DNA of 64,000 nucleotides from an uncultured Candidatus Saccharibacteria bacterium (lineage in GTDB: Bacteria; Patescibacteriota; Minisyncoccia; Phycocordibacterales; CALRHW01), in the NCBI GenBank assembly GCA_964390845.1, contig CAYMIL010000002.1, forward strand, positions 108,593 to 172,592, written 5' to 3'. Within the stretch, counting starts at the first letter, position 1. The number at the start of each line of letters is the position of its first letter. The position numbers were made by a program, and so were the translations under genes. This document shows positions 2,131-56,896 of the stretch, in pieces. The notes under the pieces are model-generated. The model saw only the letters and a list, made by a program, of their open reading frames with translations, was not told the DNA's origin and made no database searches.

Positions 2131-4416
2131 ATGAAGTTCATGTTTAAAAAAAGAATAGCACCACTTCTCTGTGTACTCATTCTCTTGGGAGGCTTTTTTC
2201 TAGCGACTCCCGCGACTGCGCATGCTAATGAAGTTTTATACTCTACCCTAAATGCAATAAATCCAGGGCTTGGGGCGGCGTATTTAGCATACGAATCAGG
2301 TGTTTCAATAGAGAGCCTACTTGCGCACATGCTTGCAAGCATTGGTGCACTTGTCATCATGGTGGCGGGCTGGTTTCTTGGTGTTGCAGGCATGCTTCTT
2401 GATTTTGTCATCAAATACACGGTTGTCTCAATGTCAGAAACAATATCCAACACACGAGCTATCAATACCGCATGGACAGTATTTCGAGATTTGGCAAACA
2501 TGTTCTTTATTTTCATCCTGATCTATGAAGCAATACGAACAATTCTTGGTATATCTGGGGTCAGCGCAAAAAAAGTGCTCACCAACGTCATCATCGTCGC
2601 GCTCCTTCTCAACTTCAGCCTCTTCTTCACAAAGATAATGATTGACGCCTCAAACATTGTTACTCTTGGTTTTTATAACAAGGTTACTGAGATGAGTGGG
2701 GGAAACAACACCACTGTCGGAGAGCATATCGGCCTCGCTGGTCCATTTCTTGCAAAAATGGGTCTCACCGGTCTCTTTAGTATTGATTCTGTTGTGGCTG
2801 GAAGTAATGGTGTGCTTGCTGGTGGGAACCTAAAAACAATCGGGATTAATGCACTCCTTGCGTCAACATTTCTCTTTATTACGGGAATGGTTTTTTGGGC
2901 CGCAAATATAATGTTTATTTCTCGGTTCGTCACACTCGTATTCCTCATGATTCTTTCACCAATTGCATTCGCGGGTGCAGTTATTCCTGACGCGGGAATG
3001 TCTAAAAAATGGTGGAAGGGTCTTTTCAGCAATCTTTTTTTTGCACCAGCATACATGGCGATGGTGTGGGTAAGTATTGTTGTTCTCGACGGTGTCCTCC
3101 CAAAACGAGACCCCACAAAATGGGCACAGGTGCTTGTGGCAAACGGAGGCGTGGTGCCCTCTGAAGACGCACTCGGCTTAATCCTCAGTTGGATTATTGT
3201 GTGCGCAATGATTATCGGCTGTCTCATTGTTGCAAAAGATTTTGGCGCCAAGGGCGCAGATTCCGCTTTGGAAAGACTCAAAAAATGGGGGGCATCTGCT
3301 CGAGACTGGACAGCGGGCAAGGTTGGCCGAACAGCACTTCGTGCTACAGGCGTTACTGGTCTCGATAAGCGAATTCGAGAAAGCAAATTTGGTGAAACAT
3401 GGTACGGAGATATGTTCCGACGGGCAACAACGGGTGCCGTCCTTAATAAAAAGGTTTATGGGCGCTCTATCAATGATGCCAACAAAGATGCTAAAAAACG
3501 TGGCGAAGAGAGAGCAAACCAAGCAGACGAAAATGCTAGACGACGTGCTGCGACAGCATTTGAAGAAAATCTTGAGAGTACCCGACAAAACCGCTCTAGC
3601 GATCTCTCAAGCGCTATCAACAACCAATACATAGCAAATCAACAAACTCGAAATGCTGCGACAGCTGCAGCTGCTGCACAGGCACACGTTGTTGCTCAGA
3701 CGTCTGGTGACCGCATGACACCTGAAGAGATAGAAAATCTCGCAAAGGAAATTTCTGCCGAAGAAGCAGTATTACGAAATCCGACAATCTTTATTTCTAC
3801 AACTGAACGAGCAGACAAGCAGAATCGTATCAATGACGCAAAAGCAAAAATTGCACGGGCAAACGCCGCGGAAAAGGCTGTGGCAGACGCAACAAAGGAA
3901 GCGAAGGAGAAGGAGGAGGAACATAAAAAAGGACTCGAGAAACATGCGCAACTCGTTGAAGACAAGAGGAAGATTGACGACCTTATCCGCACAAAAGCGA
4001 AGGCAACCAAAGAAGAGGTGGAGGACGCGAAAACAGGAATTAATGCCCACATTTCTCGAGAGCTCAATAGAACCGCCGATACTATCAGTAGCAAGAGAAG
4101 GGGTTATAAGGAACGCCAAGAAGCGGCAGAAAGACGATACGCTCGCGCACTTGAAAAACTACGCAATAGCAACGGCATGATTGAGGAGTTTGTACGCACA
4201 ATACCGTGGGTTGTGGAGGGCGCTCGCTCTGCACGTGTTGTAAACTGGGCCGCAAGCGCAGTCCAAAATGCGTATCGCGAGGCACGAAGTTCGAGCAGTG
4301 AGACGGCCGCAAAGAAACTTCGAGATGCGGCAAAAAATCCTGGAAAGAAGAAAAGGGAGGAGATTATCGCTGAATTTCTAAGAAAAGAAGAAGAAAAGGA
4401 AGAAGGAAAAAAGTAA
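2131..4416 (+). CDS. VirB6/TrbL-like polytopic membrane protein with long charged C-terminal coiled-coil tail
   Basis: Signal peptide, then about 8 hydrophobic helices over the first ~390 aa, then ~370 aa K/E/A-rich tail; adjacent to VirB4. Confidence 0.5.
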   Translation: MKFMFKKRIAPLLCVLILLGGFFLATPATAHANEVLYSTLNAINPGLGAAYLAYESGVSIESLLAHMLASIGALVIMVAGWFLGVAGMLLDFVIKYTVVSMSETISNTRAINTAWTVFRDLANMFFIFILIYEAIRTILGISGVSAKKVLTNVIIVALLLNFSLFFTKIMIDASNIVTLGFYNKVTEMSGGNNTTVGEHIGLAGPFLAKMGLTGLFSIDSVVAGSNGVLAGGNLKTIGINALLASTFLFITGMVFWAANIMFISRFVTLVFLMILSPIAFAGAVIPDAGMSKKWWKGLFSNLFFAPAYMAMVWVSIVVLDGVLPKRDPTKWAQVLVANGGVVPSEDALGLILSWIIVCAMIIGCLIVAKDFGAKGADSALERLKKWGASARDWTAGKVGRTALRATGVTGLDKRIRESKFGETWYGDMFRRATTGAVLNKKVYGRSINDANKDAKKRGEERANQADENARRRAATAFEENLESTRQNRSSDLSSAINNQYIANQQTRNAATAAAAAQAHVVAQTSGDRMTPEEIENLAKEISAEEAVLRNPTIFISTTERADKQNRINDAKAKIARANAAEKAVADATKEAKEKEEEHKKGLEKHAQLVEDKRKIDDLIRTKAKATKEEVEDAKTGINAHISRELNRTADTISSKRRGYKERQEAAERRYARALEKLRNSNGMIEEFVRTIPWVVEGARSARVVNWAASAVQNAYREARSSSSETAAKKLRDAAKNPGKKKREEIIAEFLRKEEEKEEGKK

Positions 4417-21007: not shown

Positions 21008-22024
21008 TTAACGATTATGTGTTTCTATGTGTTTGTATCCTGCGTCTGTCAGTGTTCGTCCGCGCGGTGTTCTCTCGAGGAAACCAACTTGCAGTAGGTA
21101 CGGCTCGTTGAATTCTTCGATGGTTGCTTGTTCTTCAGAGAGGGAGGCGGCGAGTGTGTTGAGGCCAACAGGGCCACCCTTAAACTTCTCTGCAATGGTG
21201 GAGAGAATCGAGCGGTCTGATGGTGAGAGCCCTGCTTCGTCGATGCCGAGGAGATTGAGCGCCTTGTCTACCATGTCTTTTGAAAGAGGTTGTTTGTGTA
21301 CTTGAGCAAAATCTCTACAGCGTTTGAGGAAATAGTTGGCGGTTCGCGGTGTGTACCGACTTCGTTTTGCTATTTCTCGTACCGCGCCGTCGTCTGTCTC
21401 TATGCCAAGAATGTGCGCCGATCGTCTTACGATTTCCTCAATCTCGTCTTGGCTGTAGTACTCTAGTCGGAATATTCCCCCAGAAAAACGTGATCGAAGT
21501 GGAGAAGAGATGAGCGCGATACGAGTGGTCGCGGCGATGAGCGTAAAGAGTGGGAGCTCGAGCTGGATTGTGCGCGCGGAAGGGCCTTTGCCAATGATGA
21601 TGTCGAGTACACCAGACTCCATCGCGGGGTAGAGAACCTCCTCGATTGCTTTGTTGAGACGATGGATTTCGTCGATAAAAAGAATGTCTCCGTGTGATAG
21701 GTTGGTGAGAATTGAAGCGAGGTCGCCAACTTTTTCGATAGCGGGGCCAGATGTTACTTTCATCTGCGCACCCGTTTCTTTTGCAATAAGGTGAGCGAGT
21801 GTTGTCTTTCCAAGACCTGGTGGTCCATAAAAAAGAATGTGCTCTGGTGGGTGGTTGCGTTCGCGCGCCGCGGTAAGCAAAATGTGCAGGTTGTCTTTTA
21901 TATTTTTCTGACCAATATACTCATGCCACTTACCAGGGCGGAGGGTGTGGTCGAGGGAAGAGGTGTCCTTATCTTCAATCCGAGCGTCTGCGTTGTCTGT
22001 TGTGCGTGGGGACTCTTTTTTCAT
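21008..22024 (-). CDS. ruvB: Holliday junction branch-migration ATPase RuvB
   Basis: Walker A GPPGLGKTTLA; Walker B ILFIDEIHRL; AAA+ and winged-helix pattern. Confidence 0.95.
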   Translation of the reverse strand: MKKESPRTTDNADARIEDKDTSSLDHTLRPGKWHEYIGQKNIKDNLHILLTAARERNHPPEHILFYGPPGLGKTTLAHLIAKETGAQMKVTSGPAIEKVGDLASILTNLSHGDILFIDEIHRLNKAIEEVLYPAMESGVLDIIIGKGPSARTIQLELPLFTLIAATTRIALISSPLRSRFSGGIFRLEYYSQDEIEEIVRRSAHILGIETDDGAVREIAKRSRYTPRTANYFLKRCRDFAQVHKQPLSKDMVDKALNLLGIDEAGLSPSDRSILSTIAEKFKGGPVGLNTLAASLSEEQATIEEFNEPYLLQVGFLERTPRGRTLTDAGYKHIETHNR

Positions 22025-22183
22025 GCGCTAAGTATACCAAAATCGTGACCAAGCAGAGCTTCTTGACAGAAAGTTAATAGTGTGCTAGGATATTGGTGTT
22101 GGTGCAGAGAAGGCAAAGCCACTTGCATTTTAAGTAGCTTTCGGTAGTATAGGGAGCCTTCCGCAATTCTTTACATCCAAGAT

Positions 22184-22360
22184 ATAAATCTCTAAGCAAC
22201 GAGGCCTTTTGGCCTTGGTAATATCTCTTTAGAGGACATTCTGGTTACCACTTCGGTGGTTTGCTGGGGTTATCCTTTGGGAAATATTCAACTTTTGGTA
22301 CGAATATTGAAAGTGTTGCTTAGAGATTTATGCCTTGGATGTTTTTCGTAAATCTCTACC
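22184..22360. ncRNA. Candidate structured/regulatory RNA in the ruvB upstream non-coding region
   Basis: 17-nt arms ATAAATCTCTAAGCAAC (22184-22200) and GTTGCTTAGAGATTTAT (22315-22331) enclose hairpins with UUCG/UUUU loops; third copy TAAATCTCT (22349-22357) gives a mutually exclusive local helix. Confidence 0.3.
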
Positions 22361-22419
22361 TCCTTAATTATTCATACACCACAGGTTTGCGCAATATTGT
22401 AAATTCTTAAAACTGTGGT

Positions 22420-24099
22420 TTAGATCGCTTCATCAAGGTCGATCACGCGACGCAACTCATCCAGAGAGGTAATACCCTGTACTGCCTTGAGAATTCCGTC
22501 CTGTTGCATATCAAGCATCTGCTGAGAAGCAGCTGCTTTTTTAATTTCTCGCTCGCTCGGGTTTTGTTGGACAACATCTTCAACGTTCTTGTCTGAACGG
22601 ATAGCTTCGTAGACACCAACGCGTCCTTTGTATCCAGTGAAATTACATTCCGCGCACCCCTTTGCTTCATAAATTGAGTCGGCGTTGACGCCTTCGAGGT
22701 AGGTGTGGTCGGAGATGCTGTGGATGATGCGATCAACAGTTTCTTTTTCTGCGCCCGCAAGCGCCTTTTTTTCTTTACATGCTGGACATAGTTTGCGCAC
22801 AAGACGTTGGGCCATGCACACAGTAACAGCAGAGGTGAGCACTTTTGGGTTAACGCCCAAGTCGATGAGGCGGGGGAAAGCGCCCGCGGCGTTGTTGGTG
22901 TGAAGTGTTGAGAAGACAAGGTGGCCCGTGAGCGCGGCGTTCACGGCGATTTCTGCCGTTTCGCTATCGCGAATTTCTCCAACCATGATGATGTCGGGAT
23001 CTTGTCGAAGCGCAGAACGTAAACCTTCGAGGAACGTGTAACCCTCGTCATTTGTTTGAGTTTGTACAATACCCGGCAAGTGATACTCAATCGGGTTTTC
23101 AATGGTGATGATTTTGATATCCGGGGAGTGGATTTTTTTGAGGAATGCGTAGAGTGTTGTTGTTTTTCCAGAACCGGTTGGGCCAGTGGTGAGAATCATA
23201 CCGTTTGGCTTGCCGAGCTCGTGCTGAAGCATTGCGAGAAGTCGCGGATGGATGCCGAGATCTTCGAGGGGCACAGAAATCGCTTTTGGATTGAGTATTC
23301 GAAGTACGACAGAGTCGCTGTATGCTCCAGGGAGGAGAGATGTTCGGATTTCTATTTCAGCGTCGTTGAGTTTGATACTAAAGCGCCCATCTTGAGCTTT
23401 GTTGTCTATGTTGAGCTTGAGGTTTGAGAGTAGTTTGATACGTGAGAGGAGGAGGTTGTATGTTTCGGTATCAAAACGAAGGATGTCGGTAAGTACACCA
23501 TCAAGACGATATCGTAGGCGCACATAGTTTTCTTCTGGCTCGATGTGCACGTCTGATGCTTTGTTGGCGAGAGCGCCCGCAAGGAGTGTTTCAAGGAAGC
23601 GAGTGATGCGGTAGGTCTTTTTTCCAGACAAACTTTCTTCAAGTAGATGCTTTAGGTCTTCGATGCTCGTCGTCTTTTGAAGCAAGTCTAAAATTTCTTC
23701 GTTTGAAATATCGAGTGCGCCACCCTTTGTTTCTGTCGACATCGAGAGGTCTTTGTAGCGACCCCACACCTTTTTAAGACTCTCTGGCGAAACGAGATAG
23801 GTGAGCGGGATATAGCCACGTTGTTTGAGATCCTCAAGAGTCGCCTGTGTTTCGGCGTGGTTGGGGGAAAGCACGCCGACATGAATTTTTTTGTCGAGAA
23901 TATTAAAAGGAGCTATTTCCGCTTTGAGCGCGTCTTCTTCTTTGATAACGCGGAGTGCGTCTATGTTGATCGGTGTTTCTGAAAGATTGATGTATGACAA
24001 GCCATATTTCGGAGCGAGCATCTCTGTAAGTCTTTCAGCCTCGTGTTTTTTTAGTTCTTCAATGCGGCGATTTTGTTTTTCTTCGTTGAATTCAACCAT
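22420..24099 (-). CDS. pilB: Type IV pilus / type II secretion assembly ATPase PilB/GspE
   Basis: Walker A TTGPTGSGKTTTL; GspE N-domain; C-terminal tetracysteine (CPAC...CAEC). Confidence 0.9.
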   Translation of the reverse strand: MVEFNEEKQNRRIEELKKHEAERLTEMLAPKYGLSYINLSETPINIDALRVIKEEDALKAEIAPFNILDKKIHVGVLSPNHAETQATLEDLKQRGYIPLTYLVSPESLKKVWGRYKDLSMSTETKGGALDISNEEILDLLQKTTSIEDLKHLLEESLSGKKTYRITRFLETLLAGALANKASDVHIEPEENYVRLRYRLDGVLTDILRFDTETYNLLLSRIKLLSNLKLNIDNKAQDGRFSIKLNDAEIEIRTSLLPGAYSDSVVLRILNPKAISVPLEDLGIHPRLLAMLQHELGKPNGMILTTGPTGSGKTTTLYAFLKKIHSPDIKIITIENPIEYHLPGIVQTQTNDEGYTFLEGLRSALRQDPDIIMVGEIRDSETAEIAVNAALTGHLVFSTLHTNNAAGAFPRLIDLGVNPKVLTSAVTVCMAQRLVRKLCPACKEKKALAGAEKETVDRIIHSISDHTYLEGVNADSIYEAKGCAECNFTGYKGRVGVYEAIRSDKNVEDVVQQNPSEREIKKAAASQQMLDMQQDGILKAVQGITSLDELRRVIDLDEAI

Positions 24100-24234
24100 A
24101 TGCACTATATAGTACCACCATACTGTCGGGGGAAACAATCATGCTTGACGCTACCGTATAAAGGTGATATAATTAACAGTAGGAAATATCGAAAGACGCG
24201 CGTCTTTCGTACACGCATCTCTACGGAGAGACAT

Positions 24235-33900: not shown

Positions 33901-34468
33901 GAATTTTAAGTGCGTGCTTTACCTTTTCAGATGCGTTGTCGATGTCGTGAGGAATCTTGTGAAGTGCATCTCGTGCTTCTGCGTGCGAGTAACCAAGGGC
34001 TTTAAGTGCTTCGATAGCATCGGAATCTTTCTGCGTGTGAAGCCCGTCAGTGCCGATCCCATCAAACTTACCCTTTAGCTCGAGAACAATCTTTTCGGCA
34101 ACCTTCTTTCCAACACCAGATACTTTTGTGAGGTAGGTGCTGTCGCCAGAAGATATCGCCATACGGACAGTTTCGGGCATAACGACGGACAATATGCCGA
34201 TTGCTGTTTTGGGCCCTATGCCTGAGACGGTGATAAGAAGCTCAAAAAGGTCGAGGTCTTCTTTTGTGAGAAAGCCGTACAAATCAAGAGCATTTTCTCT
34301 TACGGCAAGGTATGTCCATAGACGTGCTTCAGTATCGTTGGGAAGGGCGTTGAGGGTGGATGGGGCACAGGTTATACGGTAGCCCACACCGCCGACGTCG
34401 ATGACGGCCATGCGGAGGTCTTTGTGTACGATGGTTCCTCGCAGTTGGGAAATCATGGCTGTAATCAT
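33884..34468 (-). CDS. ruvA: Holliday junction DNA helicase subunit RuvA
   Basis: N-terminal OB fold (MISQLRGTIV...GVGYRI); HhH motif region (VSGIGPKTAIGILS). Confidence 0.9.
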   Translation of the reverse strand: MITAMISQLRGTIVHKDLRMAVIDVGGVGYRITCAPSTLNALPNDTEARLWTYLAVRENALDLYGFLTKEDLDLFELLITVSGIGPKTAIGILSVVMPETVRMAISSGDSTYLTKVSGVGKKVAEKIVLELKGKFDGIGTDGLHTQKDSDAIEALKALGYSHAEARDALHKIPHDIDNASEKVKHALKILGSRT

Positions 34469-56793: not shown

Positions 56794-56896
56794 TGCTCGT
56801 TTCCACCCGCCCACGCTCCTAGTTGACACGTTCTCTAAAAAGAGTATTATTGTTTTTGTGAGCGCCCTCGGGGCGTTTTTTAGTAAGAAAATACCT

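Follow-up and report, generated by a model that had tools for sequence, protein, structure and literature searches.

To our knowledge, few regulatory or structural RNAs are known from the tiny genomes of Patescibacteria (candidate phyla radiation [CPR]) beyond rRNA, tRNA, RNase P, signal recognition particle (SRP) RNA, and transfer-messenger RNA (tmRNA). Here we describe a structured RNA element situated between ruvB and a pilB/GspE-type ATPase gene (here pilB) in a 64,000-nt stretch of such a genome (contig CAYMIL010000002.1, positions 108,593 to 172,592; referred to below as the window, its forward strand as the plus strand). The described RNAs to which it comes closest are of several kinds. 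With 6S RNA (SsrS; RF00013, RF01685) it shares a size of ~170 to 185 nt, a stand-alone gene driven by a strong sigma-70 promoter, a long closing stem made by the two ends, and an apical arm of irregular shape. The traits held in common with the raiA motif RNA, OLE, ROOL, and GOLLD are restriction to a lineage, a fixed genomic neighborhood, apparently independent transcription, a covarying multi-stem structure, and the lack of a downstream gene. The Y RNAs (YrlA type, Ro60/Rsr associated) resemble it in their end-to-end long stem, conserved sequence near the junction, and multi-hairpin top, and riboswitches and attenuators in having a P1-closed domain followed by a U-run, several aptamer classes also being built as four-way junctions.

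The element occupies the central part of a 395-nt spacer (22025 to 22419), which an earlier note based on the letters alone had proposed to be a candidate structured RNA. The proposal stands: the core, positions 22173 to 22342 of the plus strand (170 nt), is shown by covariation to be a tight four-way junction, composed of a 28-bp closing stem (P1) and three arms (H1, H2, and H3), and is conserved and covarying in more than 130 homologous loci, contrary to the lack of conservation or covariation, or absence from relatives, that the note had named as refuting it. We regard it with high confidence as a plus-strand RNA gene. How it acts is a separate question, and here we lean, with modest confidence and on sequence evidence, toward an independently transcribed, structured noncoding RNA that would work as a free, protein-binding molecule rather than through a purely local effect on ruvB or pilB.

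Structure and covariation of the core

A 17-nt perfect inverted repeat (22184 to 22200 and 22315 to 22331) had been noted at this site, together with the hairpins ACCAC-UUCG-GUGGU (22247 to 22260) and AGGCC-UUUU-GGCCU (within 22201 to 22216). All are present, and the repeat is longer than was claimed: 28 nt with 93% complementarity (22173 to 22200 and 22315 to 22342), enclosing 114 nt. The spacer, with a G+C content of 39.5% versus 46% for the window, folds to −129.3 kcal/mol on the plus strand (z = −5.95 relative to dinucleotide shuffles) and to −108.1 kcal/mol on the minus strand (z = −4.44). A 175-nt core folded alone (−77.8 kcal/mol) yields P1, H1, H2, and H3.

The 5′ strand of P1 (22173 to 22200) includes an inner part, AAAUCUCUAAGCAA, that is near-invariant in close relatives; compensatory changes occur along the whole stem, and pairing is kept despite a different sequence in loci L012, L013, L014, L026, and L034. 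H1 (22201 to 22216) is a GAGGCC-UUUU-GGCCUU hairpin in the minimum free energy (MFE) fold. Its sequence and length vary among homologues, most of which have a hairpin at this position, often with a cUUCGg loop. The long central arm H2 (22220 to 22288) starts with helix P2 (22220 to 22224 and 22284 to 22288), seen by covariation, and continues with P3, in which AGGA (22233 to 22236) pairs with UCCU (22273 to 22276) and C22237 is bulged opposite U22271-A22272. There follow a G-U-rich helix, also covarying (AUUCUGG, 22238 to 22244, with CUGGGGU, 22264 to 22270), and a variable apical hairpin (22247 to 22260). H3 (22291 to 22314) is a 10-bp hairpin with a CGAA loop in the MFE fold and a conserved CUUU/AAAG stem base, present in 70 of 71 homologues. 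The 3′ strand of P1 (22315 to 22342) closes the junction, each strand of which has 0 to 4 unpaired bases, and runs directly into a U-run (22342 to 22346) that gives P1 a terminator-like 3′ end.

Across 40 diverse members, the bases that stay constant are all in P1 and H2. Those of H2, where GGA, GG, C, and UCC are invariant or nearly so, make up the AGGA/UCCU helix, the bulged C opposite UA, and the adjoining helix of conserved U-G pairs. H1, the tip of H2, and the loop of H3, in contrast, vary freely in sequence and length.

Homologues were collected by several routes. An nhmmer search with the spacer found the central 170 nt 5′ of ruvB, in each case antisense to it, in 17 RuvB-anchored genome loci. 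From 18 sequences we then built a covariance model, which detected a single copy in the window and copies in 21 related patescibacterial genome loci, four of which (L012, L013, L014, and L020; 61 to 72 bits) were absent from model building. Independently of synteny, 120 metagenome stretches were retrieved with a DNA pattern based on the closing stem (CTCTAARCAA N100-125 TTGYTTRGAGA); 114 of them match the model, strongly in 72 cases and more weakly in 5, the other 37 matches being in further loci. Two loci with RuvB at only 58 to 59% identity (L026 and L034) share the promoter and the architecture of four parts, have CAUUCUGG...CUGGGAU as their motif, and are probable distant members of the family. 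No copy was present in the RuvB loci of more distant bacteria. The window RuvB is most similar (up to 80%) to RuvB of uncultured Patescibacteria/Parcubacteria metagenome-assembled genomes (including Kaiserbacteria, Zambryskibacteria, and Paceibacteria). The family is best read as confined to one lineage of these ultra-small bacteria, of Parcubacteria (Paceibacteria) type. A weak model match on both strands of L002 (6562 to 6674; 30.7 and 24.3 bits), 2.7 kb from the real element and AT rich (27% G+C), is probably just a long hairpin.

The structure is under selection. RNAalifold analysis of the 18 RuvB-anchored genome sequences gave 47 pairs, 36 with compensatory change, and among the 40 diverse members compensatory change was seen in 34 of 38 pairs, including the seemingly invariant inner P1. 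In the 72 strong metagenome copies, 92.9% of the cells of the model pairs held standard pairs and 33 pairs changed on both sides; column shuffles reached 77.6% (0 of 500 attained the observed value), and pairing with slid partners gave 39 to 52%. The search pattern for these 72 copies fixed the inner P1 sequence and their alignment was fitted to the model, a bias from which the RuvB-anchored sets are free. In the H3 region, helices 4 and 5 of the 72-copy alignment show compensatory change in 6 of 7 pairs; a MAFFT alignment of divergent members loses H1 and H3 from the consensus. A mutual-information scan placed all its top pairs within the structure and added two, which extend P1 and H2 (the latter at columns 68-145). 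It gave nested pairs only, with no pseudoknots or loop-loop contacts.

The functional strand

Both flanking genes, ruvB and pilB, lie on the minus strand, as the earlier note had it. The functional strand of the element is the plus strand, antisense to both, as shown by the excess of G-U over A-C pairs, the UUCG loops, the promoter, and the terminators. The cells of the model pairs hold 446 G-U/U-G versus 63 A-C/C-A combinations, the G-U count being inflated somewhat by the derivation of structure and alignments on the plus strand. Were the opposite strand the RNA, pairing would be 81.3% instead of 92.9%, and CUUCGG occurs 24 times in the elements compared to 0 times for its complement, CCGAAG.

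These data bear directly on the function first suggested for the spacer, i.e., control of ruvB by a riboswitch, attenuator, or thermosensor that would lie in its 5′ untranslated region and work by mutually exclusive helices. The element does lie just 5′ of ruvB in every genome, and its reverse complement also folds well (−108.1 kcal/mol, z = −4.4). However, the 7:1 ratio of G-U to A-C and the 24:0 ratio of CUUCGG to CCGAAG identify the opposite strand as the RNA, the conserved promoter and terminators point away from ruvB, and in most relatives the ruvB ATG is inside the RNA promoter. The exclusive helix itself is real as a pairing: the third copy, TAAATCTCTA (22349 to 22358, plus strand), can pair with 22321 to 22330 over 10 bp. 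Yet forcing this hairpin raises the folding energy from −77.8 to −57.7 kcal/mol, and the window is the only one of 88 homologues with a 10-nt complement to the downstream arm; the longest complement between that arm and the next 70 nt averages 5.7 nt, versus 5.4 nt after shuffling. Being neither conserved nor energetically favorable, the third-copy helix is thus a local accident rather than part of the element, and with an alternative helix unique to one genome that costs 20 kcal/mol, the riboswitch/attenuator reading for ruvB is left unsupported. A regulatory leader of ruvB is hence extremely unlikely. The note called the spacer far larger than a promoter needs; what accounts for the size is an RNA gene in its own right, promoter included, not an oversized promoter or a ruvB leader.

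The strand asymmetry also argues against a function at the DNA level, be it a palindrome that forms a cruciform, an inverted repeat bound by a protein, a region akin to an origin, or a mobile repeat. In favor of such a function, the palindrome of P1 is long and nearly perfect, its inner sequence is strongly conserved, and DnaA-box-like repeats occur nearby in one subclade. But G-U-specific pairing and strand-specific tetraloops are not expected of DNA, the inner hairpins covary, and each locus has just one copy, invariably in the same syntenic position, with no other in 64 kb. We give such an element hardly any credence. A mobile repeat resembling miniature inverted-repeat transposable elements (MITEs) or repetitive extragenic palindromes (REPs) was rejected on the same copy number and on the position of 105 of 106 pattern-found copies with enough flank next to ruvB. 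A phage origin was likewise discarded, the lone viral-contig match being a chance match in coding sequence.

Predicted promoter, terminators, and leader

The RNA promoter (22063 to 22091, plus strand) consists of a −35 box TTGACA (22063 to 22068) and a −10 box TAGGAT (22086 to 22091), separated by a 17-nt spacer that ends in TGTGc, with the TG at 22083 to 22084. It is the sole sigma-70-like site in 21800 to 22700 (10 of 12 matches plus the TG) and the only TTGACA-N16-18-TGnTAnnnT sequence on either strand of the whole 64 kb. All 90 homologous loci whose upstream sequence is long enough have the same pattern on the RNA strand, with a perfect TTGACA, a spacer usually of 17 nt, and a TRTG motif. 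From its position, the RNA would start near 22098, leaving a 5′ leader (22098 to 22172) before the closing stem that is conserved in neither sequence nor length and is unalignable among homologues; between 8 and 217 nt separate the end of the −10 box from P1. At the other end, a U-run (at least 6 U in 8 nt) directly follows P1 in 52 of 91 homologues, and many copies lacking it have a separate GC hairpin plus U-run within 40 nt in the orientation of the RNA. P1 encloses 114 nt of conserved structure, whereas an intrinsic terminator needs none.

No open reading frame was found 3′ of the RNA on its own strand; the neighbor on that side, which is pilB except in a few loci with an inserted gene, is convergent with it, so that no gene lies downstream in the same orientation for the RNA to regulate.

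Several leaders have features of their own. In one subset of loci (L105, L132, L159, L144, L104, L138, and nine others), two or three direct repeats resembling DnaA boxes (TATCAACA / TATCCACA) occur on the RNA strand, 11 to 12 nt apart and 60 to 130 nt before P1. Their role may be that of an operator, bound by DnaA or some other protein, or that of a repeat in the RNA. They are followed by TTATAGCAT, which on the ruvB strand reads TGCTATAAT, a perfect extended −10.

A proposed mode of action

In the reading that we favor, transcription would start at about 22098 from the sigma-70 promoter, proceed away from ruvB, and end at about 22346 at the U-run after P1, before the convergent pilB. The product would be stable and well expressed and would act as an RNA itself, not as an mRNA leader. 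The invariant asymmetric internal loop of H2 (AGGA-C / UA-UCCU), beside the G-U-rich helix, would be the protein docking site, and P1, in its outer part, where covariation is free, would be a stalk for processing or stability, yielding the same mature RNA whatever the length of the leader (0 to 200 nt).

No cataloged family accounts for it. Apart from seven tRNAs, an Rfam 15 scan (4,227 models) of the window returned noise even at E ≤ 10, the best matches scoring 16 to 21 bits (E of 0.7 to 3.3) against gathering scores of 50 to 95. No Rfam family was common to 20 homologous loci at permissive thresholds, ARAGORN placed no tRNA or tmRNA in 22025 to 22419, and no description of such an RNA was found in open-access full text on CPR/Parcubacteria noncoding RNAs. 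On the evidence of Rfam 15 and this literature, it is best read as a new family matching no cataloged one, the novelty being at the level of the RNA family.

A lineage-specific 6S-like RNA, i.e., an abundant RNA of ~170 to 180 nt that binds the sigma-70 holoenzyme by open-promoter mimicry, would fit in several respects. The size (170 to 185 nt), the layout (long closing stem, central region, irregular apical arm), and the stand-alone gene with its strong sigma-70 promoter are as expected, and the 170-nt core with its paired ends is of the kind of an independent ~150- to 200-nt transcript, its transcription being predicted from motifs. Phylum-specific 6S variants that escape the main model exist, and we know of no 6S RNA described for these bacteria. 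The center of the molecule does not fit, however: 6S RNA has an open, mostly single-stranded bubble, which is replaced here by a tight junction with two stable covarying hairpins, H1 and H3 (often with UUCG loops), and only 0 to 4 unpaired bases at each junction. Moreover, the conserved bases are here in the internal loop of the apical arm, and neither RF00013 nor RF01685 was matched even at E ≤ 10. A 6S-like role appears improbable.

Closed by P1, four-way junctions are common aptamer architectures, and B12 riboswitches controlling antisense or small RNAs are known in Listeria and Enterococcus. The element might accordingly sense a ligand or protein and decide whether plus-strand transcription stops at P1 or reads on as a pilB antisense, an idea to which the U-run after P1 and the position of pilB, directly downstream in antisense orientation (0 to 10 nt in several loci), lend some appeal. 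But a near-perfect 28-bp P1 (core of about −78 kcal/mol) is far too stable for ligand dependence, there is no conserved alternative pairing, no Rfam riboswitch was matched, and, unlike in known riboswitches and attenuators, there is no regulated gene in cis and the strand is opposite to that of the neighbors. An aptamer is therefore very improbable.

The remaining described RNAs differ as well. There is no sequence or structure match in Rfam 15 to raiA, OLE, ROOL, or GOLLD RNAs, and the present RNA is smaller and from another phylum (Patescibacteria). The raiA RNA is located near competence and ribosome-hibernation genes. Y RNAs have a tRNA-mimic T-loop/D-loop module that is absent here, where the hairpins are tetraloop capped, and no Rfam match was obtained to them either. 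A Y RNA would also have a Ro-binding stem and an rsr gene nearby; the immediate neighbors here are ruvB and pilB, and the assignment is left unsupported. SRP RNA (4.5S/7S) was rejected on the lack of an Rfam SRP match, the variable length and sequence of the H2 apex, and the missing helix-8 motifs (GNAR tetraloop, AGCA, GGAA), the conserved bases here being AGGA-C / UA-UCCU. RNase P RNA was rejected on the lack of an Rfam match, the small size (at least ~200 nt are needed), and the absence from the mutual-information data of a P4 pseudoknot or long-range pairs; the likeness of GAGGACAUUCUGG to RNase P CR-I was dismissed as superficial because GAGGACAUUCUGG pairs locally with covariation. A tRNA, tmRNA, or tRNA-like RNA was rejected on the blank ARAGORN result and the tetraloops of the hairpins.

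Linkage to ruvB and probable competition between divergent starts

ruvB (21008 to 22024, minus strand) is divergent from the RNA gene, and pilB (22420 to 24138, minus strand) convergent. The first of these arrangements is nearly universal: among the 114 pattern-found copies with a model match, 105 have ruvB on the 5′ side of the RNA and on the opposite strand, 8 have less than 220 nt of flank, and 1 is L158. The adjacency is kept even where genes have been inserted between the RNA and pilB. In L158 (160 to 2027), the sole copy with flanking sequence that lacks ruvB, a RuvB-like N terminus of ~20 residues is followed by sequence without a long open reading frame, and the contig is probably chimeric. 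This locus also has a short GC hairpin plus U-run, in RNA orientation, between promoter and P1.

In relatives without the RNA, ruvA holds the place that the RNA occupies: the RNA was absent from all 27 RuvB loci with ruvA detected directly 5′ of ruvB (including L021, L036, L039, and L044; at ~3300 to 3970). The RNA-positive lineage is the one with a divided ruvAB operon, in which ruvB comes after pilB; the ruvA gene of the window (34046 to 34456, minus strand) is 12 kb from ruvB.

The RNA promoter and the ruvB start also overlap. In 65 of 81 loci (including L001, L005, L020, and L117), TTGACAT (the −35 box and one further base) is what ATG-TCA-A, the in-frame start of ruvB, reads on the opposite strand, and RuvB begins with Met-Ser-Ser. 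The consensus before the ATG on the ruvB strand, AgtnTAGCATAnaataAannna, has no Shine-Dalgarno sequence, and TAGCAT, the complement of the RNA promoter motif TRTGnTA, lies 12 nt before the ATG, where it could be the −10 box of a nearly leaderless ruvB mRNA. This suggests that the region is a bidirectional promoter at which one polymerase excludes the other, and since the RNA promoter overlaps the ruvB start region, transcription of the RNA and of ruvB would probably compete. Competition between orientations has been described for bacterial bidirectional promoters (PMC12825309, PMC10268837); the concept is taken from these studies, and its application to the RNA/ruvB region is ours. As in the described class (PMC12825309, PMC10268837), the RNA −10 region TRTGnTAnnnT reads TAGCAT on the other strand, and the polymerase sites would overlap. 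The described promoters, however, are nearly fully symmetric, whereas here the −10 boxes overlap by only 2 bp, the ruvB start from TAGCAT is putative, and the arrangement is loosened in the window, where the ruvB ATG is 39 nt from the −35 box of the RNA promoter. The candidate ruvB promoter of the window is an extended −10, TGGTATACT (22031 to 22039, minus strand), located 6 nt before the ATG at 22024 and with no −35 box, which explains why the promoter scanner was silent on it; it would likewise make the ruvB mRNA leaderless.

These data speak for a local cis regulator. What would matter here is the act of transcribing from a promoter over the ruvB start, by promoter competition at a bidirectional promoter, or an antisense or insulator effect against pilB-to-ruvB read-through, with P1 serving mainly as a strong terminator, bidirectional in some lineages. 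Such a role would account for the constant presence beside ruvB even with genes inserted before pilB, for the match of TTGACAT to the ruvB start in 65 of 81 loci, and for a TAGCAT box 12 nt before an ATG without a Shine-Dalgarno sequence. It is also in line with the known orientation competition (PMC12825309, PMC10268837), and P1 lies between an A-run and a U-run in one subclade. Yet interference or termination needs no three covarying inner hairpins, nor the invariant asymmetric loop, which is kept even where the P1 sequence has wholly changed; and the RNA of the window is intact although its promoter has moved 39 nt away from the ruvB ATG. Taken together, we consider a local cis regulator unlikely, if more probable than a 6S-like RNA or an aptamer.

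Several points weigh against the free, protein-binding RNA that we favor. With 105 of the 106 pattern-found copies that have room adjoining ruvB, a purely local role in cis would also fit. The existence, start, and end of the transcript are all deduced from sequence motifs, and the G-U count carries the plus-strand bias mentioned above. A hairpin plus U-run lies between promoter and P1 in L008, L156, L125, L128, L011, and L133, which could halt transcription before the RNA and implies either attenuation with read-through or another promoter nearer to P1. Finally, this reading does not account for the near-invariance of the inner P1 sequence.

A further possibility, quite unlikely in our judgment, is that the RNA represents a new housekeeping-type class, specific to a Parcubacteria lineage, in which the perfectly paired junction and the invariant H2 loop form a ribonucleoprotein tied to RuvB recombination or DNA uptake, or else a catalytic RNA of a new class. 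It may in that case be a decoy or cofactor for proteins that recognize four-way junctions. The RNA stands where relatives without it have ruvA, and its promoter region is shared with ruvB.

Whichever way it acts, this RNA of ~170 nt probably matters to these organisms: it covaries, its promoter is the best of the 64 kb, and a deep lineage has kept it at one locus. The overlap, in which one stretch of DNA is both a −35 box for the RNA and the first two ruvB codons, is also an instance of extreme genome compaction and may couple expression of the recombination motor to that of the RNA.

Other features of the locus

Downstream of the core, a 14-nt inverted repeat (22375 to 22388 and 22409 to 22422; 86% complementary) spans the pilB stop codon and is possibly a weak pilB terminator or a second stop for the RNA. 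Between P1 and this repeat, the plus strand at 22361 to 22370 is ACCUCCUUA, the same as the 3′ end of 16S rRNA (anti-Shine-Dalgarno). The minus strand reads UAAGGAGGU there, with no start codon after it. CUCC-containing tails recur 3′ of P1 in several relatives and are partly explained by C-terminal Glu-Glu codons of pilB. A structure-bridged ribosome-binding site for ruvB, in which a hairpin would bring the minus-strand AAGGAGG (22363 to 22370) near the start, is excluded by distances of 36 to 149 nt.

Elsewhere in the window, at 56823 to 56890 (plus strand), a hairpin plus U-run, GAGCGCCCUCGGGGCGUUUUUU, begins no more than ~15 nt after a consensus promoter, TTGACA-N16-TATTAT; some of the RNA leaders show this order of promoter and terminator as well.

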